DNA from: a virus
Taxonomy: Duplodnaviria > Heunggongvirae > Uroviricota > Caudoviricetes
Reading direction: 5' to 3' (one strand)
Length of the DNA stretch: 18,202 nt
IMG/VR virus record: IMGVR_UViG_2617270976_000013
Location: 1 to 18,202 of that record
Shown piece after piece: positions 3,366 to 18,202 of this stretch. The position numbers were made by a program, and so were the translations under genes. How positions within the stretch are numbered: the stretch's first letter is position 1; each line of letters begins with the position of its first letter. The notes beneath the pieces were generated by a model. It ran no database searches. It saw nothing but the letters and a program-made list of their open reading frames with translations, and was not told the origin of the DNA.

Positions 3366-3414
3366 CTTCCATTAATCCCTGAATTGTTGGTTAATACGCT
3401 TGAGGATGAATGCG

Positions 3415-3441
3415 AACAATAAAAAAGGAGCCTGTAGCTCC
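3415..3441 (-). terminator. putative intrinsic terminator (minus strand)
   Basis: Hairpin ggagc-ctgta-gctcc (3427-3441); on the minus strand it is followed directly by a T6 run (plus-strand aaaaaa 3421-3426). Confidence 0.4.
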
Positions 3442-3463
3442 CTGATGATTTTGCTTTTCATGT

Positions 3464-3679
3464 TCACCGTTCCTTAAAGACGCCGTTTAACATGCCGATC
3501 ACCAGGCTTAAATGAGTCGGTGTGAATCCCATCAGCGTTACCGTTTCGCGGTGCTTCTTTAGTACGCTACGGCAAATGTCATTGACGTTTTTATCCGGAA
3601 ACTGCTGTCTGGCTTTTTTGATTTCATAATTAGCCTGACGGGCAATGCTGCGAAGGGCGTTATTATGTTCTATTGTCAT
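3464..3679 (-). CDS. hypothetical protein (71 aa), translationally coupled downstream of the 250-aa gene
   Basis: ATG at 3679 with GAGG about 5 nt upstream, 8 nt after the stop of the 250-aa ORF; product MTIEHNNALRSIARQANYEIKKARQ..., no family recognised. The ORF track extends it to 3817 but that overlaps the upstream gene. Confidence 0.5.
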   Translation of the reverse strand: MTIEHNNALRSIARQANYEIKKARQQFPDKNVNDICRSVLKKHRETVTLMGFTPTHLSLVIGMLNGVFKER

Positions 3680-3686
3680 ATTGGCC

Positions 3687-4439
3687 TCACACTTCGAATG
3701 CCAGTTGAGGGGTAAAGACGTCCCGTTCAGCGTTGTAATTAAGTGAACTGGCACTGTTGAATGATTCAATGCGTTCCACAAGAACTTGCGTACGGGTTTC
3801 TTTACTTGCGGGAGCATATGGCGAACCTACCCAGGATTTGTCGATGCCTATATTTCTTGCGACGTTCGTGCTGTCTGCAGACGAAAGCGGTACATGAGTA
3901 AAAATGTCTTTATTTAACATCCGTAACCCATGAATCTTGGTGATTGGGTAGCCGTACTGATCTACAACATGACGTATAAGATCGCGTAGTTTAGCCCGAC
4001 ACGCTCTCGGTCGTTTTGCATCGTATTCCCCCATCGAGCCGATGCAGACGCGGGGAAACTCATGGCACAGACGAATAAATCGCTCATCTGGTTCGTTCAT
4101 GTGCCACACCGGAGCACCAATAAATTTACCGTGAGGCCATGCCGCAATCAGGGCGTCATTCTCTTCACTGGTTCCGCCGATAACATCCGGGATAACCGCG
4201 AATGAGAAACGAGGGTGATTACCCCAGCGTTCAACAAATCTGTAATATTCATTCCAGTCTATGGCCTTGTTTTTTGTCCAGAATGTGAATGCACCATTAT
4301 CAAGAGCAAATGATTGGGTGACTTCGGAAGCCAGATCAATCTGAGCTGGATTAGCAAAACTGATGAATGCGTGTCTGCCTTTCCAGGCTTTCAACGCACA
4401 GGTATCGGGAGTTATTGGACCACCGTGAAAATGAATCAT
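3687..4439 (-). CDS. 250-aa protein with TGT-superfamily (tRNA-guanine transglycosylase-like) motifs; candidate DpdA-type 7-deazaguanine DNA transglycosylase
   Basis: Ordered motifs resembling bacterial Tgt: LDNGAF (46-51) vs TDSGGFQ, AVIPDVIGG (81-89), CIGSMG (132-137) vs VGGL, KDIFTHVP (177-184) vs IDMFDCVMP, TNVARN (191-196) vs TRNARN. No CxCxxC zinc site. The ORF itself is secure; the family call is from a by-eye alignment. Confidence 0.5.
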   Translation of the reverse strand: MIHFHGGPITPDTCALKAWKGRHAFISFANPAQIDLASEVTQSFALDNGAFTFWTKNKAIDWNEYYRFVERWGNHPRFSFAVIPDVIGGTSEENDALIAAWPHGKFIGAPVWHMNEPDERFIRLCHEFPRVCIGSMGEYDAKRPRACRAKLRDLIRHVVDQYGYPITKIHGLRMLNKDIFTHVPLSSADSTNVARNIGIDKSWVGSPYAPASKETRTQVLVERIESFNSASSLNYNAERDVFTPQLAFEV

Positions 4440-4594
4440 ACACTCTCCCGTTTATTATTTATCTCCTCAGCCAGCCGCTGGGCTTTCAGCGGATTTCGGA
4501 TAACAGAAAGGCCGGGAAATACCCAGCCTCGCTTTGTAACGGAGTAGACGAAAGTGATCGCGCCTACCCGGATATTATCGTGAGGATGCTTCAT
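4436..4594 (-). CDS. small protein (52 aa), lambda orf60a-like position immediately downstream of exo
   Basis: ATG overlaps the exo stop (ATGA) and its stop overlaps the ATG of the 250-aa gene (ATGA); product [52 protein letters not shown]. Below the ORF track length cutoff. Confidence 0.5.
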
Positions 4595-5271
4595 CGCCAT
4601 TGCTCCCCAAATACAAAACCAATTTCAGCCAGTGCCACGTCCATTTTTTCGATGAACTCCGGCACCATCTCGTCAAAATTCGCCATGTACTTTTCATTCC
4701 GCTCAATCACGACATAATGCAGTCCTTCACGCTTCATCCGCGGGTCATAGTTGGCAAAGTACCAGGCATCTTTTCGTGTCACCCACATGCTGTACTGCAC
4801 CTGGGCCATGTAAGCCGATTTTATGGCCTCGAAACCACCGAGCCGGAACTTCATGAAATCCCGGGAGGTAAACGGGCATTTCAGCTCAAGGCCATTGCCG
4901 TCACTGCATAAACCATCGGGAGAGCAGGCGGTGCGCATACTTTCGTCGCGATAGATGATCGGGGATTCAATAACATTTACGCCGGAAGTGAACTCAAACA
5001 CGGTTCTGGCGTCGTTCTCGTACTGTTTTCCCCAGGCCAGCGCTTTAGCGTTAACTTCCGGAGCCACACCGGTGCAAACCTCAGCCAGCAGGGTGTGGAA
5101 GTAGGACATTTTCATGTCAGGCCACTTCTTTCCTGATCGGGGCTTTGCTATCACGTTGTGAACTTCTGAAGCGGTGATGACGCCGAGCCGTAATTTGTGC
5201 CATGCATCATCCCCCTGTTCGACAGCTCTCACGTCGATCCCGGTACGCTGCAGGATAATGTCCGGTGTCAT
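4591..5271 (-). CDS. exo: lambda-type 5'-3' exonuclease (Red alpha)
   Basis: 226-aa product [40 protein letters not shown]... matches lambda Exo along its length; ATGA overlap with bet. Confidence 0.95.
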
Positions 5272-6053
5272 GCTGCCACCTTCTGCTCAGTGGCTTTCTG
5301 TTTCAGGAATCCAAGAGCTTTCACTGCTTCGGCCTGTGTCAGTTCTGACGATGCGCGAATGTCGCGGCGAAATATCTGGGAACAGAGCGGCAATAAGTCG
5401 TCATCCCATGTTTTATCCAGGGCGATCAGCAGAGTGTTAATCTCCTGCATGGTTTCATCGTTAACCGGAGTGATGTCGCGTTCTGGCTGACGTTCTGCAG
5501 TGTATGCTGTATTTTCGACAATGCGCTCGGCTTCATCCTTGTCATAGATACCAGCAAATCCGAAGGCCAGACGGGCACACTGAATCATGGCTTTATGCCG
5601 TAACATCCGTTTGGGATGCGACTGCCACGGCCCCGTGATTTCTCTGCCTTCGCGGGTTTTGAATGGTTCGCGGCGGCATTCATCCATCCATTCGGTAACG
5701 CAGATCGGATGATTACGGTCCTTGCGGTAAATCCGGCATGTACAGGATTCATTGTCCTGCTCAAAGTCCATGCCATCAAACTGCTGGTTTTCATTGATGA
5801 TGCGGGACCAGCCATCAACGCCCACCACCGGAACAATGCCGTTCTGCTTATCAGGGAAGGCGTAAATTTCTTTCGTCCACGGATTAAGGCCGTACTGGTT
5901 GGCGACGATCAACAATGCGATGAACTGCGCATCGCTGGCATCACCTTTAAATGCCGTCTGGCGAAGAGTGGTGATCAGTTCCTGTGGGTCGACAGAATCC
6001 ATGCCGACACGTTCAGCCAGCTTCCCTGCCAGCGTTGCGAGTGCTGTACTCAT
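5268..6053 (-). CDS. bet: lambda-type single-strand annealing protein (Red beta)
   Basis: 261-aa product [66 protein letters not shown]... matches lambda Bet. Confidence 0.95.
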
Positions 6054-6058
6054 CCGTT

Positions 6059-6355
6059 TTATACCTCTGAATCAATATCAAACTGGTGGTGAGCAATGGT
6101 TTCAACCATGTACCGGATGTGTTCTGCCATGCGCTCCTGAAACTCAACATCGTCATCAAACGCACGGGTAATGGCTTTTTTGCTGGCCCCGCAGCGTTGC
6201 AAATGATCGATACAGAGTGATTCAAACAGGTGCTGTGGAAGACCTTTTTCCATGTCGTCTGCCAGTTCTGCCTCTTTCTCTTCACGGGCGATCTGCTGGT
6301 AGTGACGTGCCCAGCTCTGAGCCTCAAGACGATCCTGAATGTAATAAGCGTTCAT
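6059..6355 (-). CDS. gam: RecBCD inhibitor Gam (short, GamS-like form)
   Basis: 98-aa product [47 protein letters not shown]... matches lambda Gam; SD AGGAG 8 nt upstream. The in-frame upstream extension has a stop and no ATG. Confidence 0.9.
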
Positions 6356-6990: not shown

Positions 6991-7085
6991 TTAGGATGGA
7001 TTTATTTTGTGACTTGAATCGCATAGCGATAACTGAAGCGAGGTTATGGTGGTTTTTTTAACGGTGTGTGTGATGAGGGGGGGGG

Positions 7086-7113
7086 CAAAAGAAAACCCGG
7101 CACGGTGACCGGG
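7086..7113 (-). terminator. putative intrinsic terminator downstream of the repressor gene (minus strand)
   Basis: GC stem cccgg (7096-7100) / ccggg (7109-7113) with an 8-nt loop; on the minus strand followed by TTTTCTTTT and then a C9 tract (plus-strand G9 at 7077-7085). Confidence 0.4.
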
Positions 7114-7234
7114 ATTCTTACGCCGTTAGGTAAAGATATTATTGCGGTGGCTTAATATTACTACCTAGAGCAAAGATAGGAATTAGTTCTTTACTGAATG
7201 AGCACAATGCCCAGTTGATAATTTTTAATTGGTA

Positions 7235-7924
7235 CTACCCATGCTTCCTATATGTCTGCGGCATGCTCCCAATAACCTTACCGAAGATGAACACCCGGTT
7301 CATCTCGTCTTTCTCGATCGGGTCCCACGGTGAGTAGCTTTTGTTATCAGAGATGACCAGCAGCTTATCCTTCATCATTTGCAGGCGCTTTACATGGGCT
7401 GTGTCGTCGTACAGAAACGCATAGATACCATCACCGTCGAAAGATTTAACTGTGATATCAACGAACAGCAGATCACCTGGTTCGATCGTTCCTGACATGC
7501 TGTCACCACGCACGTTAATGATGCGGATATTTTCCGCCTTCCTACCATCGAACATGTGACGAGCATCGTCAAACGAGTACTCAACCGAGCGTAGAACTTC
7601 TACAAACTCACGGTTGATGACTCCCGGCCCAGCACTGACTTCTATATCAAGAACGTCAATCTTGAAGTATTTGGAATGGCTGACAGTTGATTGTATTGGT
7701 TGCACTGTACTGTCTGACATATTTCCAACGCCAGAAGATAACCATTCTGCGCGCACACCCAAAGCGTTCGCGATCTCCACGATTTTAGTTGTTTGATTAG
7801 CTTTCCCTGTTTCGATTTTCTGAATAGCAGCCTGGCTAACCCCGACCAAATCCCCAAGCGCCTTTTGTGTAAGGCCTCGCGCTAATCTGGCTTCTTTAAG
7901 TCTTTCTGAGAGTGTTGTTTTCAT
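7235..7924 (-). CDS. cI: CI-like prophage repressor, HTH plus S24 (LexA-type) peptidase domain
   Basis: 229-aa product MKTTLSERLKEARLARGLTQKALGDLVGVSQAAIQKIETGK... with C-terminal GDSM and VKRL (Ser/Lys dyad context). Start chosen at ATG 7924 (not 7990) to leave a 105-bp operator region; no SD, consistent with a leaderless mRNA. Confidence 0.9.
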   Translation of the reverse strand: MKTTLSERLKEARLARGLTQKALGDLVGVSQAAIQKIETGKANQTTKIVEIANALGVRAEWLSSGVGNMSDSTVQPIQSTVSHSKYFKIDVLDIEVSAGPGVINREFVEVLRSVEYSFDDARHMFDGRKAENIRIINVRGDSMSGTIEPGDLLFVDITVKSFDGDGIYAFLYDDTAHVKRLQMMKDKLLVISDNKSYSPWDPIEKDEMNRVFIFGKVIGSMPQTYRKHG

Positions 7925-8028
7925 AGTCCAAATGTACAACCAAGGTTTTATTCCATCAAACGAAAATGGTTGTTGACTAAAAACAACCATGGTTTTAATC
8001 TTGATTCAAATTAACCACGGAGGTTGTT
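7925..8028. promoter_or_regulatory. divergent promoter/operator region (OR, pR, pRM-like)
   Basis: Three operator-like sites sharing AACCA/TGGTT half-sites (caaccaaggtttt, aaaatggttgttg, aaaacaaccatggtttt with perfect palindrome aaccatggtt). Rightward TTGACT (7973-7978) then TTTAAT; leftward TTGATG, 17 nt, TACATT ending about 7 nt before the repressor ATG. Confidence 0.55.
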
Positions 8029-8259
8029 ATGAACCCAGCTATCAAAACAGCGATCAATATCGTTGGTTCACAAAAGAAACTGGGCGCTGCTTGCGAAGTT
8101 TCACAGCAGGCCGTCTATAAGTGGCTTCACAACAAAGCAAAGGTATCCCCTGAACATGTCGGCAGCATTGTTACGGCTACTGGTGGAGTAGTGAAGGCAT
8201 ACCAGATTCGCCCGGATCTTCCGAAGTTGTTTCCACACACCGAAAAGAACGCAGCTTAA
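8029..8259 (+). CDS. cro: Cro-like HTH regulator (YdaS-like)
   Basis: 76-aa product MNPAIKTAINIVGSQKKLGAACEVSQQAVYKWLHNKAKVSPEH...; SD GGAGG 5 nt upstream; divergent from the repressor across the operator region. Confidence 0.85.
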   Translation: MNPAIKTAINIVGSQKKLGAACEVSQQAVYKWLHNKAKVSPEHVGSIVTATGGVVKAYQIRPDLPKLFPHTEKNAA

Positions 8260-8328: not shown

Positions 8329-8868
8329 ATGCAACCACTTACATACCAACAGACTAGCGGATTTAGCCCGACTGCGGTGATAAATCGTTCTCAAACAAAA
8401 CAGGTGCCAGGCCACGAAAAGATCCGTGATGCCGTCCGCGCCTGGTCGGCTGTAGATAATCAGGATGTCGTTGCCACACTCATTGTGAATGAGTATCGGG
8501 AGCAGGGCGGCGGCACCATCGATTTCCCTGATGATGTCAGCCGTGCACGCCAGAAGCTGTTCCGCTTCCTCGATAACAAATTCGATTCTGAAAAATACCG
8601 AAATAACGTGCGTGAACTGACCCCGGCAATTCTGGCGGTACTACCGCTGGAATATCGCGGTTACCTGGTTGAGCAGGATAGCTTCATGGCTAGGTTGGCT
8701 GAAATGGAAAAGGAACTCAGTGAGGCAAAACAGGCTGTCATTCTCAACGCACCACGCCACCAGAAACTGAAGGAAATTAGTGAAGGTATTGTGTCGATGT
8801 TTCGTGTGGACCCAGATCTGGCTGGTCCATTGATGGCGATGGTTACTACCATGCTGGGGGCGATATGA
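8329..8868 (+). CDS. CII-position regulator, YdaT-family
   Basis: 179-aa product; segment ARQKLFRFLDNKFDSEKYRNNVRELTPAILAVLP resembles Rac YdaT ARNTQKIFRWVEKDTPDAVEKMQALLPAIEKSMP; strong SD AAGGAG; follows cro as cII does in lambda. Confidence 0.7.
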   Translation: MQPLTYQQTSGFSPTAVINRSQTKQVPGHEKIRDAVRAWSAVDNQDVVATLIVNEYREQGGGTIDFPDDVSRARQKLFRFLDNKFDSEKYRNNVRELTPAILAVLPLEYRGYLVEQDSFMARLAEMEKELSEAKQAVILNAPRHQKLKEISEGIVSMFRVDPDLAGPLMAMVTTMLGAI

Positions 8869-8954
8869 CAGGTTCAGAAATGGCGAAAGCCGGTCTGCTG
8901 GAACAGAACCGACTTTCAGGTGCAAACCGTAACACACTCATTGCGGGAGGAATT

Positions 8955-9560
8955 ATGGCAAACACTGCTGAGATATTCAATTTTCCAGTGCCGGATGTGG
9001 CACAAAAGGAGCCGCGCGTGGCAGATCTCGATGATGGTTATACGCGCATTGCAAATGAGTTGCTGGAAGCTGTGATGCTGGCCGGATTAACACAGCACCA
9101 GCTTCTGGTCTTCCTGGCTGTCATGCGCAAAACATATGGCTTTAATAAAAAACTGGATTGGGTGAGCAACGAGCAACTTTCCGAGTTGACCGGGATATTG
9201 CCGCACAAGTGTTCTGCTGCAAAAAGTGTTCTGGTAAAGCGTGGGATTTTTATTCAGAGCGGGCGGAATATCGGCATTAATAATGTGGTCAGTGAATGGT
9301 CAACATTACCCGAATCAGGTAAGAAAAATAAAGTTTACCTGAAAGAGGTAAATTTACCTGAATCAGGTAAGAAAAGTTTACCCAAATCAGGTAAAGACGT
9401 TTACCCGAATCAGGTAAACACAAAAGACAAACTAACAAAAGACAATATAAAACCTTTTTCGTCCGAGAATTTTGGCGAATCCTCTGACCAGCCAGAAAAC
9501 GATCTTCCTGTGGTGAAACCGGATGCTGCAATTCAGAGCGGCAGCAAGTGGGGGATCTGA
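8955..9560 (+). CDS. O: replication initiator, lambda O-like (N-terminal origin-binding domain)
   Basis: 201-aa product; VADLDDGYTRIANELLEA...LAVMRKTYGFNKK matches lambda O (VADLDDGYARLSNMLLEA...LRKTYGWNK); SD GGGAGG upstream of ATG 8955; contains iterons. Shorter than lambda O. Confidence 0.85.
   Translation: MANTAEIFNFPVPDVAQKEPRVADLDDGYTRIANELLEAVMLAGLTQHQLLVFLAVMRKTYGFNKKLDWVSNEQLSELTGILPHKCSAAKSVLVKRGIFIQSGRNIGINNVVSEWSTLPESGKKNKVYLKEVNLPESGKKSLPKSGKDVYPNQVNTKDKLTKDNIKPFSSENFGESSDQPENDLPVVKPDAAIQSGSKWGI
9306..9418. repeat. origin iterons (ori) inside the O gene
   Basis: Four to five copies of about 18 bp TTTACCYRAATCAGGTAA (starts near 9306, 9333 degenerate, 9353, 9377, 9400), each internally palindromic (ACCTGA-a-TCAGGT), followed by an AT-rich stretch (9418-9462). 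Confidence 0.7.
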
Positions 9561-9609
9561 ATGGAGCGTTAATGATGCAGCGGATATCATCAGGTGCCTA
9601 GTACGGGTG

Positions 9610-9861
9610 ATGGAGATCATCAAGCAGGATAGCCAGCAGAAAGAAGGTAATCAGGCATTAATGTTGAAACAGTACTTTGTTAATCTGCTAATAATGGAAC
9701 TGTACGAGGAAGTTCATAACGGTGATGCGGCTGATTCTGTTTTTAAAAGTACGGAACCTACACAAGTACTTGATAACTTATGGAGCAAATGGCAGGAGGC
9801 TATAGCTATTTTTGATATTTGGAATTACCCAGTTGCGACTGAGGAAGACTTGGCAGACTAA
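9610..9861 (+). CDS. hypothetical protein (84 aa) in the position normally occupied by a helicase loader
   Basis: ORF from ATG 9610 (MEIIKQDSQQKEGNQALMLKQYFVNLLIMELYEE...); no similarity to lambda P or DnaC recognised; start uncertain. Confidence 0.4.
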   Translation: MEIIKQDSQQKEGNQALMLKQYFVNLLIMELYEEVHNGDAADSVFKSTEPTQVLDNLWSKWQEAIAIFDIWNYPVATEEDLAD

Positions 9862-10055
9862 TTTTCAGCACATTTGATTTCCAATAATCAACCAGCCATA
9901 ATCATGCCATTGGAGCCTGAACAACTCCGGTGACTTCTGCGCTAAACGGGGACGTTTATGCGCACATACAATCCAACCTATCTTCTCCATTCACAGATGC
10001 AGAAATGCACCTGCGTTTTTTTGCATCCAACGTTTGACCTCTGCGGAGGTGAAGC

Positions 10056-12117: not shown

Positions 12118-13200
12118 TTAGAACTGGTAAACCATACCTACAGCAACGATATCATCGGTAGCAACGCCAGATGCTTTCGTGAAATCGCTCTTATCAATCA
12201 GGTTGATTTTGTAATCAACAAAAGTGGACATATTTTTGTTGAAGTAATAGGTTGCACCTACATCAATATATTCAACCAGGTCCTGATCACCCCACGCACC
12301 CAAGTCTTTTCCTTTAGATTGCAGGTAAGCAACGGACGGACGCAGACCGAAGTCGAACTGATATTGTGCAACTACTTCGAAGTTTTGTGCTTTGTTGGCA
12401 ATATGGTTATTACCAAAAACAGTCATGTTCTGGGTTTCAGAATAGGTGGTAGCCAGATAGATGTTGTTCGCATCATATTTCAGACCAGCTGCCCATACTT
12501 CAGCATTTTGACCAGATGCATTCAGGCTGTTGTTACCGTAGATAACCTGATTATTAGTGCGGTCAGATTTAGCATAGGTTGCACCTACACCGAATCCTTC
12601 ATACTCATAAGTAGTGGAGAAACCGAAACCATCACCATTAGCTTCAGTTACGTCAGTGCGGTCATTTTTACCCTGATACTGAGCAGCAAAGTTCAGACCA
12701 TCAACCAGACCAAAGAAGTCATTGTTACGATAAGTTGCAACACCTGTGGTGCGACCAGTCATGAATACATCTGTTTGGGTCCAGGTATCGCCACCGAATT
12801 CTGGCAGAACGTCGGTCCATGCACCAATATCGTATGCTACACCGTAGTTACGGCCATAATCGATGGAGCCGTAGTCACCGAATTTCAGGCCAGCGAAGGC
12901 AAGACGGGTTTTATCTTTGGAGGAACCTTGAGATTCAGCGCGGTTGCCTTTGAATTCATATTCCCACTGACCGAAACCAGTCAGTTGATCGTTGATTTGG
13001 GTTTCACCTTTGAAGCCAAGACGGGCATAAGTAGTATCACCATCATCTGCATCATTAGAGGAGAAGTAGTGCTTAGCATTAACTTTCCCGTACAGATCCA
13101 GCTTGTTACTGTCTTTATTATAAATTTCAGCTGCCTGAGCAGACATCGCCATCAGTACTGATGCAGTTACAGCAGAAATTGCCACTGTTAATTTTTTCAT
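12118..13200 (-). CDS. OmpC/NmpC-family outer-membrane porin (prophage moron)
   Basis: 360-aa product with signal peptide [23 protein letters not shown], Gly/Tyr/Asn-rich beta-barrel composition and C-terminal F (..VGMVYQF); lies between Q and the lysis genes in opposite orientation, as nmpC does in DLP12. Confidence 0.9.
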
Positions 13201-13626
13201 CGTGAGCCCTTTTTTTGAACTATTATTAAAAAATGATGTCACTGCGCGATAAATATTCATCTAATCAATGTGATTATTTCAAGATGTAAGTTTTGGTTTC
13301 TCATTTGATTTGTGAAGTAGATCTCTATTTTTATCTGAACTTTTTCTATCGAATCCTATTCATGGCTCTTGGCTGAATAAAAATAAATCTATTAGCCAAT
13401 TTATATTAATGGCTGTTATTTATAAGTGCTCTATAATTTGAAGGTTCAATTTAAATCGGCTAAAAATAACGCTGGAAATTATTTGTTGGTTATTTGTTGA
13501 GATTTGCTTATGTATTTGTAGTGGTGTTTTCAATACTCGGTAGCATTCTCGCAAATATCATTTAGTGGTTTACGTACGTAAAAAATTGGTTATGCTGTTA
13601 AGAGTGGTTACTTCGTCACACAGCTT

Positions 13627-15808: not shown

Positions 15809-15964
15809 ATGATTGATGACGGCGTGGTGTCCCGTATTGATCTGGATATCCGCCGCACCGGGATTAATGAACTGGGTAACAGTATCACTCTCTGGCGTCG
15901 TGACGGACCGGTAATGATTTCTTTTGATGATCTGTGGAGTGCGATAACGCATGGCGGACAGTGA
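15809..15964 (+). pseudogene. truncated ORF overlapping the J start, possibly the 3' remnant of an upstream baseplate gene
   Basis: Open frame from the stop at 15737 to 15964 encoding ...MIDDGVVSRIDLDIRRTGINELGNSITLWRRDGPVMISFDDLWSAITHGGQ; overlaps J by 14 nt as upstream baseplate genes often do; no SD or N-terminal domain. Confidence 0.3.
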
Positions 15965-16871
15965 ATTTCAGCGCCCGACGCTGGCAGAAAATATCAGTAT
16001 GCTCCGTAACGATTTATTCGCCAGGCTGGACGTCAGCGACACGCTCCGGCGCATGGATGAAGACGTGCGGGCAAAGGTGTATGCGGCGGCGCTGCATACG
16101 GTTTACGGTTACATCGATTATCTGGCAATGAACATGCTGCCTGACCTGTGCGATGAGTCCTGGCTGGCGCGACATGCTGCGATGAAACGGTGTCCGCGCA
16201 AGGGGGCCACGGCTGCCAGCGGGTATATGCGCTGGGAAGGTGTCAGCGATGGCCTGAAGGTGACTGCCGGGAGTGTTATTCAGCGCGATGACCTGGTTCA
16301 GTACACGGCAACTGCCGATGCAACCAGCTCCGGTGGTGTCCTGCGCGTGCCGATCGCCTGCTCAAGTGCAGGCGCGGTCGGTAACGCTGACGACGGTACG
16401 TCATTAATCCTGGTCACGCCGGTGAATGGTCTGCCGTCTTCCGGCGTGGCAGACACTCTGACAGGTGGATTTGATACTGAAGAGCTGGAAACGTGGCGCG
16501 CCCGCGTCATTGAGCGGTATTACTGGACGCCTCAGGGCGGGGCTGACGGGGACTATGTTGTCTGGGCTAAAGAAGTGCCAGGCATTACCCGTGCATGGAC
16601 ATACCGCCACTGGATGGGAACGGGGACTGTCGGTGTGATGATTGCCAGCAGTGACCTGATTAATCCCATTCCGGAAGAATCAACGGAAACGGCGGCAAGA
16701 CAACACATTGAGCCACTGGCCCCGGTGGCAGGCTCTGATTTGTATGTATTCAGGCCGGTGGCGCATAAAGTGGATTTTCATATCCGCGTGACGCCGGACA
16801 CACTGGAAATACGGGCTGCCATCACCGCCGAGTTGCGTTCGTTCCTGCTGCGTGATGGTTATCCGGAGTAA
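15951..16871 (+). CDS. baseplate assembly protein J-like (P2 gpJ family)
   Basis: 306-aa product MADSEFQRPTLAENISMLRNDLFARLDVSDTLRRMDEDVRAKVYAAALHTVYGYIDYLAMNMLPDL... recognised as the P2 J / e14 JayE baseplate family. Confidence 0.8.
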   Translation: MADSEFQRPTLAENISMLRNDLFARLDVSDTLRRMDEDVRAKVYAAALHTVYGYIDYLAMNMLPDLCDESWLARHAAMKRCPRKGATAASGYMRWEGVSDGLKVTAGSVIQRDDLVQYTATADATSSGGVLRVPIACSSAGAVGNADDGTSLILVTPVNGLPSSGVADTLTGGFDTEELETWRARVIERYYWTPQGGADGDYVVWAKEVPGITRAWTYRHWMGTGTVGVMIASSDLINPIPEESTETAARQHIEPLAPVAGSDLYVFRPVAHKVDFHIRVTPDTLEIRAAITAELRSFLLRDGYPE

Positions 16872-17095
16872 TCCATGCATCGTATAGATACGAAAGACAG
16901 CTATTAATTAATCAGGCCAACGAATACATGAACAGTAAACAATGGCCCGGTAAAACCGCTATTGGTCGTCTGAAAGGCGAGGAACTGGCGCAATATAATT
17001 CGTGGCTGGATTATCTGGACGCACTGGAGCTGGTTGATACCTCCAGTGTGCCAGATATTGAATGGCCTACGCCTCCGGCAGTTCAGGCCAGATGA
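16872..17095 (+). pseudogene. tail fibre assembly protein remnant (C-terminal part only)
   Basis: Frame open from the J stop encodes ...ERQLLINQANEYMNSKQWPGKTAIGRLKGEELAQYNSWLDYLDALELVDTSSVPDIEWPTPPAVQAR, the conserved C-terminal region of Tfa chaperones, with no N-terminal domain; converges on and overlaps the complete tfa on the other strand. Confidence 0.5.
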
Positions 17096-17669
17096 CATCA
17101 GGCGCGGTGCTGGTATCAGTTGCCGTCACCGCGTCAATGTAATCCAGCACAGCGTTAAGGCTGGTTGTTTCTGCCTGCGTCAGTTTACGTCCGGCCTGCA
17201 ATTTCAGCTGAATCAGACTGATTGAAGCCATTGCAGTATCAATCAGTGACTGGCGCTGTGCTTCTGCTGCATCTACTGCGGCGCTATGCTGTGCTTCGGT
17301 ATCCGTCACCCATTTCTCACCATCCCATTTATCGTATGGCGTTAACGGGGCGATAGTGGTTGTATTATCAGGGTAATCACCCGGAGCTGTGATTTCTTTT
17401 GACTCTCCCGTTTTGGTGCTATAGACGATTTCACCGCGATGGTCTGGCACATATTCCCATGAGTTAAAATTTGCAGAACGACAGATAGCATAACCCGCCT
17501 TATGTGTGCCAGGGGCATCTAAACAGGAATATGCAGGAATACCGACACCAATGGCAAGATATTCAGTTGATGCTGAAATATATTCCTGCGTCTCACTATC
17601 ATAGTTATAAACGGTAATATCCCCCGACTTTGTAGCAATAAGCTCACTATTTAATATTGCTTTATCCAT
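17067..17669 (-). CDS. tfa: tail fibre assembly protein (Tfa chaperone)
   Basis: 200-aa product ending ...QSLIDTAMASISLIQLKLQAGRKLTQAETTSLNAVLDYIDAVTATDTSTAPDVIWPELPEA, the characteristic Tfa C-terminus; start overlaps the stop of the upstream tail-fibre ORF (TAATG). Confidence 0.85.
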   Translation of the reverse strand: MDKAILNSELIATKSGDITVYNYDSETQEYISASTEYLAIGVGIPAYSCLDAPGTHKAGYAICRSANFNSWEYVPDHRGEIVYSTKTGESKEITAPGDYPDNTTTIAPLTPYDKWDGEKWVTDTEAQHSAAVDAAEAQRQSLIDTAMASISLIQLKLQAGRKLTQAETTSLNAVLDYIDAVTATDTSTAPDVIWPELPEA

Positions 17670-18202
17670 TATGCTGCTCTCACGATATAGTTAAATGCAA
17701 TGTTTCGAGGGCGATTCTCTGATGCTGTTGGTACAACCCTGGATGCATCAAAACTGAATCCTGTGTAAGGGGTATTTTTTGTTTCATATGTGCCTAGGTT
17801 ATTATAGATATTTCGCGTAGCTTGAGATGCTAAGGCAAAAGCACCAGTACCAGTCTGTAACCTGAAAGTTGCTGTATCAATGGTGCCTTTAACTTCATTT
17901 ATAAATCCTGTTATATTCCGAATGGTATCTCCCTGTGACGAAAGCAAGCTACGGTTAGTATCAATCCCTCTTCCATCATCCCAGCCACGAATAAACTCAC
18001 CGCGTAAATCAGGCAATTTATTTGTCGGGTAAACCTTTGCCAGTTCCGGGTATTCTTCAGCAGAAAAAGCCGCCCCGTTGCATTTCAGCCAGCCTGTTGG
18101 CGGAGTGGCGGAAGGCCACGGAACAGGCACGCCAACGGGTAATGCCGAACCTTCTCCCAAACCAACGTTTATGAAAATGCAGAAATAACGAGCAAATGGC
18201 AT
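17669..18202 (-). CDS. tail fibre protein, C-terminal (variable) segment with tail-collar domain
   Basis: 177-aa product containing LPDLRGEFIRGWDDGRGIDTNRSL (tail-collar signature); only 177 aa, so it cannot be a whole fibre; the ATG sits at the last bases of the window. Confidence 0.75.
   Translation of the reverse strand: MPFARYFCIFINVGLGEGSALPVGVPVPWPSATPPTGWLKCNGAAFSAEEYPELAKVYPTNKLPDLRGEFIRGWDDGRGIDTNRSLLSSQGDTIRNITGFINEVKGTIDTATFRLQTGTGAFALASQATRNIYNNLGTYETKNTPYTGFSFDASRVVPTASENRPRNIAFNYIVRAA
18152..18177. other. candidate DNA-invertase crossover site (hix/gix/pix-like)
   Basis: TTCTCCCAAACCAACGTTTATGAAAA: 26 bp, imperfect dyad around an AAACC-AA-CGTTT core; resembles hixL (TTCTTGAAAACCAAGGTTTTTGATAA) recalled from memory; lies within the 5' end of the tail-fibre segment. 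Confidence 0.5.

Follow-up and report, generated by a model that had tools for sequence, protein, structure and literature searches.

A stand-alone DpdA-like gene in the early-left operon of a lambdoid Escherichia coli prophage

The viral record IMGVR_UViG_2617270976_000013 comprises 18,202 nucleotides (the window, that is, the whole stretch of DNA that was analysed) and contains part of a lambdoid prophage of Escherichia coli. An open reading frame (ORF) on its minus strand, at 3687-4439 with the stop codon counted in, encodes a protein of 250 amino acids. Membership of this protein in the phage DpdA family, with the fold of the tRNA-guanine transglycosylase (TGT) superfamily, is well supported; within the family it is nearest to the DpdA1 type, to which its homology is remote but firm. 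On balance, its natural job is probably the insertion of a host-derived 7-deazaguanine, preQ0 in the first place, into DNA by means of a double displacement with an aspartate nucleophile. A preliminary description of this DNA, made from the sequence, had proposed the same ORF without giving its strand and a DpdA-like protein of TGT fold. Both proposals are borne out, the latter by profile comparisons, a predicted barrel and the structural neighbours of that barrel. The DpdA idea is not new for this group of genes, as homologues were listed as DpdA in Supplementary Data 1 of Hutinet et al. 2019 (PMC6884629).

Membership of the phage DpdA family

The DpdA-like protein matched PHROG 887, annotated as 'queuine tRNA-ribosyltransferase', with an E-value of 2e-99. 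The validated DpdA of Escherichia phage CAjan matches the same region of this profile with an E-value of 8e-96. Alignments were built from 49 diverse family members (A1), from 28 CAjan-type DpdA1 proteins, and from 104 closer homologues. When the 49-member family profile was compared to the 28-member DpdA1 profile with hhalign, the two aligned over 173 columns with a probability of 99.0% (E = 4.6e-18). A pairwise BLASTP alignment of the DpdA-like protein with CAjan DpdA (E = 1e-4, ~21% identity) is colinear with the hhalign alignment.

The preliminary description had suggested profile searches with TGT and DpdA models, and these gave a divided answer: PHROG 887 and the DpdA1 profile match, but the Pfam TGT model (PF01702) and the PADLOC DpdA models do not. 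None of the other 48 members of alignment A1 matched PF01702 either. Since the validated CAjan DpdA is likewise without a Pfam match, the Pfam misses are uninformative. In control searches, the PADLOC bDpdA model detected CAjan DpdA with an E-value of 1.3e-3 and E. coli Tgt with an E-value of 2e-8. Comparisons by hhalign of the family with E. coli Tgt and with eight bacterial Tgt proteins taken from plasmid records, together with one that used a merged phage profile, were not significant. What connects the family to canonical Tgt is structural and transitive evidence rather than direct sequence statistics.

A related protein was observed on a cyanobacterial plasmid. In Picosynechococcus sp. 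PCC 73109 (NZ_CP014001.1), a 307-residue 'tRNA-guanine transglycosylase' is encoded between two DEAD/DEAH helicase genes (703-1626 of the excised locus L023). It presents LHVFGLG and SVDSSS motifs that resemble those of phage DpdA, has no CxCxxC motif, and aligns to bacterial Tgt with an hhalign probability of 97.8%. Its alignments with the DpdA-like family (E = 0.01) and with DpdA1 (E = 0.004) are colinear and not significant. The plasmid protein may represent a short DpdA of bacteria, intermediate between Tgt and the phage enzymes.

Predicted fold

An AlphaFold2 model calculated from the 104-sequence alignment had high accuracy scores (predicted local distance difference test, pLDDT = 91.5; predicted template modelling score, pTM = 0.88). 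The model consists of eight β-strands that alternate with helices in a minimal (β/α)8 barrel of the TGT type. A Foldseek search against predicted viral structures (BFVD) returned 29 matches at E ≤ 1e-3, and those with names were almost all phage 'queuine tRNA-ribosyltransferase' proteins. A Foldseek search of the PDB was weak, with tryptophan synthase alpha as the top match (E = 1e-3); the closest solved structural neighbour of the DpdA-like protein is Cap10.

The C-terminal ends of the strands form the catalytic face of a TIM barrel. In the model, D47, D85, H113, G134/S135, H170 and D189 are placed at or just past the C-terminal ends of strands 3 to 8.

Active-site residues

The five motifs quoted in the preliminary description are all present in the translation: LDNGAF (46-51), AVIPDVIGG (81-89), CIGSMG (132-137), KDIFTHVP (177-184) and TNVARN (191-196). 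As also stated there, a zinc site is lacking; no CxCxxC motif occurs in the protein and its four cysteines are scattered (14, 125, 132 and 147). E. coli Tgt has 375 residues with CDCYTC at 302, making the DpdA-like protein shorter by ~125 residues, close to the ~120 estimated earlier.

Among homologues down to ~32% identity, H5, D47, F/Y51, W54, P84-D85, N94, H113, E116, G134, H170-G171-L172, P184, S187, D189 and S190 are invariant or near-invariant. The hhalign alignment pairs six positions of this set with DpdA1: D47 with D63, D85 with D105, H113 with H132, the GS pair with GG (G153-G154), H170 with H187, and D189 with D206. These positions are invariant or nearly so in the DpdA-like family and invariant in DpdA1. 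Conservation and alignment together identify three active-site aspartates (D47, D85 and D189) and a conserved histidine (H113).

For bDpdA, the structurally characterized bacterial enzyme, roles have been assigned to D95 as the acid/base with F99 four residues on, to D130 and H181 as base readers, to L236 in base stacking, and to D256 as the nucleophile (PMC10164549). The order of these residues and the D-x3-F spacing fit D47/F51, D85, H113, L172 and D189, and each may be considered in turn.

The D47 codon (4299-4301, minus strand) lies in the LDNGAF motif. Aspartate is found at this position in 49/49 and 104/104 sequences of the diverse and closer sets, aligns with D63 of LDSGAF in CAjan, and stands at the C-terminal end of the strand formed by residues 43-47. 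D47 and F51 are separated by the same D-x3-F spacing as D95 and F99 of bDpdA. By analogy, D47 is proposed to be the general acid/base and F51, four residues past it, a base-stacking gate. The D85 codon (4185-4187, minus) belongs to IPDVIGG; aspartate is present in 48/49 and 104/104 sequences, just past strand 78-82, and D85 would be the equivalent of bDpdA D130 as judged from the order of the residues. The H113 codon (4101-4103, minus) lies in VWHMNE at the end of strand 111-113. With histidine in 48/49 and 104/104 sequences, H113 would be the base-recognition histidine equivalent to bDpdA His181.

The H170 codon (3930-3932, minus) lies in KIHGLR and is conserved in 49/49 and 104/104 sequences. 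H170 precedes D189 by 19 residues in an arrangement that appears to recall the H226/D248 pair of Cap10, and it may serve as a hydrogen-bond partner of the nucleophile. L172 is proposed, again by analogy, to be a base-stacking residue. The D189 codon (3873-3875, minus), within SSADSTN, is equally conserved (49/49 and 104/104), and D189 is likely the catalytic nucleophile. This assignment agrees with a transitive check through the PADLOC bDpdA model, in which residues 147-209 of CAjan DpdA, holding D206, match positions 200-259, and residues 155-272 of E. coli Tgt, holding the nucleophile D264, match positions 149-264. A further hint only is given by a colinear and non-significant alignment through the Picosynechococcus protein, in which H170 is opposite the tyrosine of Tgt YLMGVG and D189 is opposite Tgt D264.

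The preliminary description had named Asp47, Asp85 and Asp178 as catalytic. While the first two are invariant or nearly so, D178 is an aspartate in only 8/49 diverse and 29/104 closer homologues. This variability rules it out as a catalytic residue, and D189 is the invariant aspartate instead. The pairing of KDIFTHVP with IDMFDCVMP of Tgt, on which D178 depended, is therefore wrong.

Gene and operon position

The DpdA-like gene starts with an ATG at 4439 and stops with a TGA at 3689-3687. A GGGAGAG sequence is found 4 nt upstream of the ATG. Directly upstream, a 54-residue ORF (4436-4600, minus) is of the DUF1317 / lambda orf60a type, as indicated by PHROG 1998 and by the DUF1317 annotation in other genomes. 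The TGA stop of this ORF and the start of the DpdA-like gene share an ATGA overlap. Farther upstream on the same strand are the early-left recombination genes exo (4591-5271), bet (5268-6053) and gam (6059-6355), assigned from the annotations of homologous regions. Together, exo, bet and gam (4591-6355) and the DpdA-like gene form one string of overlapping genes. A consensus scan of the minus strand from gam to the DpdA-like gene found no promoter-like site that could serve as the gene's own. The DpdA-like gene is translationally coupled within the gam-bet-exo early-left operon of the lambdoid prophage.

Downstream, an orf61-type gene of 71 residues (3464-3679, minus; PHROG 303) begins 8 nt past the stop of the DpdA-like gene, and a 216-nt gene is annotated at this place in both phage PhiR5_1 and E. 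coli strain S21. A longer ORF of 117 residues (3464-3817, minus), which reaches into the 3' end of the DpdA-like gene, was rejected as the same 71-residue frame extended to an earlier ATG; the annotated homologues and PHROG 303 indicate that the real start is at 3679. The orf61-type gene is followed by a terminator-like hairpin and T-run (3425-3443, minus) from the consensus scan only. The gene slot is swappable, as a DUF1382 gene takes this place in strain G1/2, the closest E. coli prophage.

Homologues and their neighbourhoods

In the viable phage PhiR5_1 the protein is 100% identical, and its gene has the same place in an exo-orf60a-X-orf61 order. In E. coli S21, a DLP12-type prophage at argU is 99.5% identical in DNA over 3400-4700 of the window, and the protein appears in RefSeq as a 'hypothetical protein' (WP_000581108.1). 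By tblastn, the DpdA-like protein is 68% identical over its full length to that of SPN3UB, 37% to that of HK106 and 35.5% to that of phage 7-11. The gene is present in ~95 of 5426 complete E. coli genomes (~2%). The family as a whole amounts to 6445 clusters at 90% identity and 897 at 50%, spread over many genera and several temperate phage types. A conserved family of this size argues for a maintained enzymatic function.

Nine further loci were examined: HK106, PhiR5_1, E. coli S21, Pseudomonas aeruginosa prophages, three metagenomic phage contigs, an Aeromonas P2-like prophage, and phage 7-11. In these, the gene is always in a temperate-phage early region, either between the recombination genes and the integrase or just past the P2 gpA replication gene. 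No preQ0 genes (folE, queD, queE, queC) were found in the window or beside the homologues in the nine loci, upholding the earlier view of a stand-alone gene. No partner gene was conserved across lineages in the nine loci, and neither the window nor the homologue loci contain a CD-NTase or QueC-like (Cap9) gene. These contexts argue against a two-gene system of the Cap9/Cap10 type, and the neighbourhoods fit a DNA-directed early function with a host-supplied substrate.

Hutinet et al. 2019 sorted 182 viruses into groups, the third of which holds 76 phages with DpdA and no other pathway gene, the phages of Mycobacterium and those of Gammaproteobacteria clustering apart (PMC6884629). The lack of linked preQ0 genes places the DpdA-like gene in this 'DpdA-only' group rather than in the core DpdA1 group. 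Phages listed as having DpdA in Supplementary Data 1 of that study include HK106, SfI, SPN3UB, SEN1, SE131, BTP1, PEAT2 and 7-11 (PMC6884629). Six of these eight (not SfI or BTP1) are among the tblastn matches listed for the DpdA-like protein. The gene is thus a further member of a clade catalogued in 2019; PHROGs already names the family and NCBI PGAP calls the protein hypothetical.

The P. aeruginosa prophages (L008-L011) present a different neighbourhood. The DpdA-like gene directly follows genes for a 406-residue PAPS-reductase-family (PF01507) protein and an 81-residue protein, and a gene for an SRA/ScoMcrA-domain protein lies downstream (in L008, these genes are at 4523-5743, 5756-6001 and 7036-7899). 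PF01507 belongs to the PP-loop ATP-pyrophosphatase fold group, of which QueC is also a member. Among the lineages examined, the PAPS-reductase-family neighbour occurs in Pseudomonas prophages only.

State of the prophage

The DNA of the window is ~98% identical to E. coli chromosomes, and the prophage is lambdoid, DLP12-like and located at thrW. The gene order is proA, tRNA-Thr (CGU; 1369-1444), integrase, small early genes, the DpdA-like gene, the DUF1317/orf60a-type ORF, exo, bet and gam. Beyond gam are cI, cro, a YdaT-like gene, an O-like replication gene, nin-region genes, the Q antiterminator, a porin moron, and the lysis cassette.

The O-like replication ORF ends at residue 231 (region 8865-9873). 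Relative to the G1/2 prophage, a 3.8-kb segment is gone that covers the last third of O, the whole of P, ren and several ORFs, and 318 bp of other DNA stand in its place. For the next ORF after the O-like gene (9523-9861), the match to PHROG 1779 is confined to the C-terminal part of that profile. With O truncated and P missing, the prophage is probably replication-defective. Similarity to lambdoid prophages stops at ~15788, directly past the lysis cassette, and DNA of e14-type tail genes extends from there to 18202. This DNA holds an e14-type baseplate J/gp47 fragment (15951-16871, plus), a tail-fibre assembly gene (17067-17669, minus), and a tail-fibre gene (17669-18202, minus). No terminase or head genes were found in the window between the lysis cassette and the tail genes, and no complete E. 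coli genome in the searched collection covers the junction at ~15788. As read from its sequence, the element appears defective, unable to replicate or to package, though its DpdA-like gene is intact.

Two other features of the prophage were observed. On the strand opposite to its neighbours, a gene for a 380-residue OmpC/NmpC-type porin (12118-13260, minus), a DLP12-style moron, separates the Q antiterminator from the lysis genes; a plus-strand ORF of 362 residues that overlaps it is probably spurious. The genes for cI (251 residues; 7235-7990, minus) and cro (8029-8259, plus) are 99.7% identical in DNA to those of phage PhiR5_1. The HipA-like toxin pair that PhiR5_1 carries between cI and kil does not occur in the window. 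In the otherwise closest E. coli prophages, a 229-residue S24-peptidase repressor is annotated at the cI position, yet the DNA aligns there at ~98% identity.

Proposed function and alternatives

For the DpdA-like protein itself, we only infer the DNA substrate, the inserted base, the residue roles and an anti-restriction benefit. Upon induction or infection, the early-left promoter would drive the gene together with gam, bet and exo, and preQ0 would be drawn from the host FolE-QueD-QueE-QueC pathway. A guanine in double-stranded DNA would then be swapped for the 7-deazaguanine in a TGT-type double displacement, during which D189 would attack C1' to give a covalent enzyme-DNA intermediate. D47 would act as the acid/base, D85 and H113 would read the base, and F51 and L172 would sandwich it. 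The expected outcome would be a sparse and probably motif-specific mark that blunts restriction.

There is precedent for such an activity. Deletion of dpdA in CAjan abolishes dPreQ0 in the phage DNA (PMC6884629). When expressed alone, DpdA of phage 9g and DpdA2 of nt-1 each introduced dPreQ0 into plasmid DNA of E. coli; with nt-1 DpdA2, a queD mutation removed the signal (PMC6884629, PMC10516641). Host preQ0 is therefore sufficient, in keeping with the preliminary description, which had named the host pathway as a possible source of the base.

Several observations weigh against DNA insertion as the natural job. Salmonella phage 7-11, the only member of the clade to have been tested, has 50 dADG per 10^6 nt in its DNA (~0.02% of G) and no dPreQ0, and mycobacteriophage Orion, which is also DpdA-only, has no modification (PMC6884629). 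In bDpdA, a 128-residue insertion between β8 and α8 includes the zinc site and builds a DNA-binding crescent (PMC10164549), whereas in the model of the DpdA-like protein only ~23 residues connect strand 8 (187-190) to the last barrel helix (213-225). CAjan DpdA also extends ~38 residues farther past the aligned core. The protein had 0 matches at E ≤ 10 among Pfam, NCBIfam and PADLOC models, and searches of PDB sequences (phmmer and profile hmmsearch) returned noise only, namely HipT and GCN4; the DpdA1 profile did no better. Since this copy of the prophage seemingly cannot replicate or package, it is doubtful that its own DNA would gain from the modification, and the earlier statement that the prophage modifies its own DNA is probably inapplicable. 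The authors of the 2019 study considered the modification status of DpdA-only phages hard to predict and the proteins possibly diverged in function (PMC6884629). Apart from Hutinet 2019 and 2023, no work on temperate or stand-alone DpdA came up in the literature searches, and where later papers turn to DpdA-only phages, the 7-11 result is still the only one that they quote.

An unlikely alternative is that the protein is active as a TGT-fold transglycosylase but has a physiological substrate other than bulk DNA. It might act on tRNA or another RNA, on a 7-deazaguanine-conjugated protein as Cap10 does, or on a free nucleoside or nucleotide, in a counter-defence or host-takeover role. The loss of the bDpdA DNA-binding insertion and the almost unmodified DNA of phage 7-11 would suit such an enzyme, and functional divergence of singleton DpdAs was raised by Hutinet 2019 (PMC6884629). 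However, the H/D pair and the remaining active-site set are common to DpdA1, a proven DNA enzyme, the gene always lies in phage DNA-metabolism modules, and no CD-NTase or QueC-like partner is nearby. For a tRNA substrate there is the further difficulty that the protein has neither the zinc subdomain with which Tgt binds tRNA nor the N-terminal lid of that enzyme.

It is similarly improbable that the protein is a genuine DpdA homologue that inserts traces of host preQ0 or ADG with little or no protection, its gene being a drifting accessory of the non-essential early-left region and a passenger in a decaying prophage. The strict conservation of the catalytic set across the 897 clusters at 50% identity is at odds with this, as is the intact ORF with its perfect identity to the protein of the viable PhiR5_1. 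Points in its favour are the trace of modified G in phage 7-11, the slot that a DUF1382 gene can occupy, the small share of E. coli genomes that have the gene, and a prophage with a truncated O, no P and no morphogenesis genes after the lysis cassette.

Somewhat less probable than either is a repurposing of the entire minimal, stand-alone DpdA clade of temperate phages, whose Asp/His transglycosylase, like that of its structural neighbour Cap10, would not be a bulk DNA modifier. In an anti-defence role, its target might then be a defence protein that bears a deazaguanine, from either type IV CBASS (the cyclic-oligonucleotide-based antiphage signalling system) or QatABCD; a very few specific DNA or RNA sites are another possible target. 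If true, this would account for the near-unmodified DNA of 7-11 along with the loss of the DNA-binding insertion and of the zinc site.

A generic TIM-barrel enzyme unconnected to 7-deazaguanine chemistry, with TGT-like motifs that are convergent or due to chance, is very improbable and close to refuted: the empty Pfam, NCBIfam and PADLOC searches, tryptophan synthase alpha at the top of the PDB comparison and the non-significant alignment to eight bacterial Tgt would be in its favour, but the Pfam miss is shared with CAjan DpdA, PHROG 887 is likewise shared with it, the BFVD neighbours are phage DpdA-type proteins, and the hhalign alignment to DpdA1 matches all active-site residues.

Should insertion into DNA be the natural job, many ordinary temperate phages, among them those of E. 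coli, Salmonella, Klebsiella, Vibrio and Pseudomonas, could possess a one-gene route to 7-deazaguanine DNA. This would bear on restriction evasion, on sensitivity to modification-dependent nucleases (GmrSD/GrwAB), and on nanopore base-calling of prophage-derived DNA. With its identity to the allele of a viable phage, PhiR5_1, the E. coli allele may serve as a convenient handle on the DpdA-only question left open in 2019.

Comparison with known systems

No similarity to canonical bacterial Tgt or archaeal ArcTGT (PF01702) is detected at the sequence level, and the tRNA-binding zinc subdomain and N-terminal lid of Tgt have no counterpart in the DpdA-like protein.

The bDpdA protein of the Dpd system of Salmonella Montevideo (PDB: 7UI4) appears to share the order of an acid/base aspartate, a D-x3-F gate, a base-reading aspartate and histidine, and a nucleophilic aspartate. 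In contrast to the DpdA-like protein, bDpdA has 413 residues, four insertions and a CxCx2Cx22H zinc site, and needs the DpdB ATPase (PMC10164549). The dpdB/dpdC-K neighbourhood of bDpdA is also not encountered, as the neighbours of the DpdA-like gene are lambda early genes.

Cap10 of type IV CBASS (PDB: 9NTN) has a similar barrel fold and no zinc site. Its nucleophile, D248, is hydrogen-bonded to H226 ~20 residues upstream, a spacing similar to that of H170 and D189. Cap10 differs in that the sequence identity is only 9%, and in that it acts together with Cap9, a QueC-like protein, its ligand being the deazaguanylated N-terminus of a CD-NTase.

DpdA1 of the Queuovirinae (Escherichia phages CAjan, 9g and Bas24) has the same fold and the same D, D, H, GG/GS, H, D set, and it too lacks CxCxxC. 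It replaces ~25-32% of G (PMC6884629). At 306 residues, it has ~14 more N-terminal residues than the DpdA-like protein. The dpdA1 gene adjoins folE, queD, queE, queC and a preQ0 transporter gene, all of which are missing from the surroundings of the DpdA-like gene.

The closest counterparts are the DpdA-only phages of Gammaproteobacteria (Salmonella SPN3UB, SEN1, SE131, BTP1 and 7-11; Enterobacteria HK106 and SfI; Pectobacterium PEAT2), from which nothing essential differs. Like the DpdA-like gene, theirs belong to PHROG 887 and stand alone without preQ0 genes; most of these phages are temperate and carry the gene in the early region. Relative to them, the copy described here is the allele of an E. 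coli prophage, housed in an apparently defective DLP12-like element at thrW.

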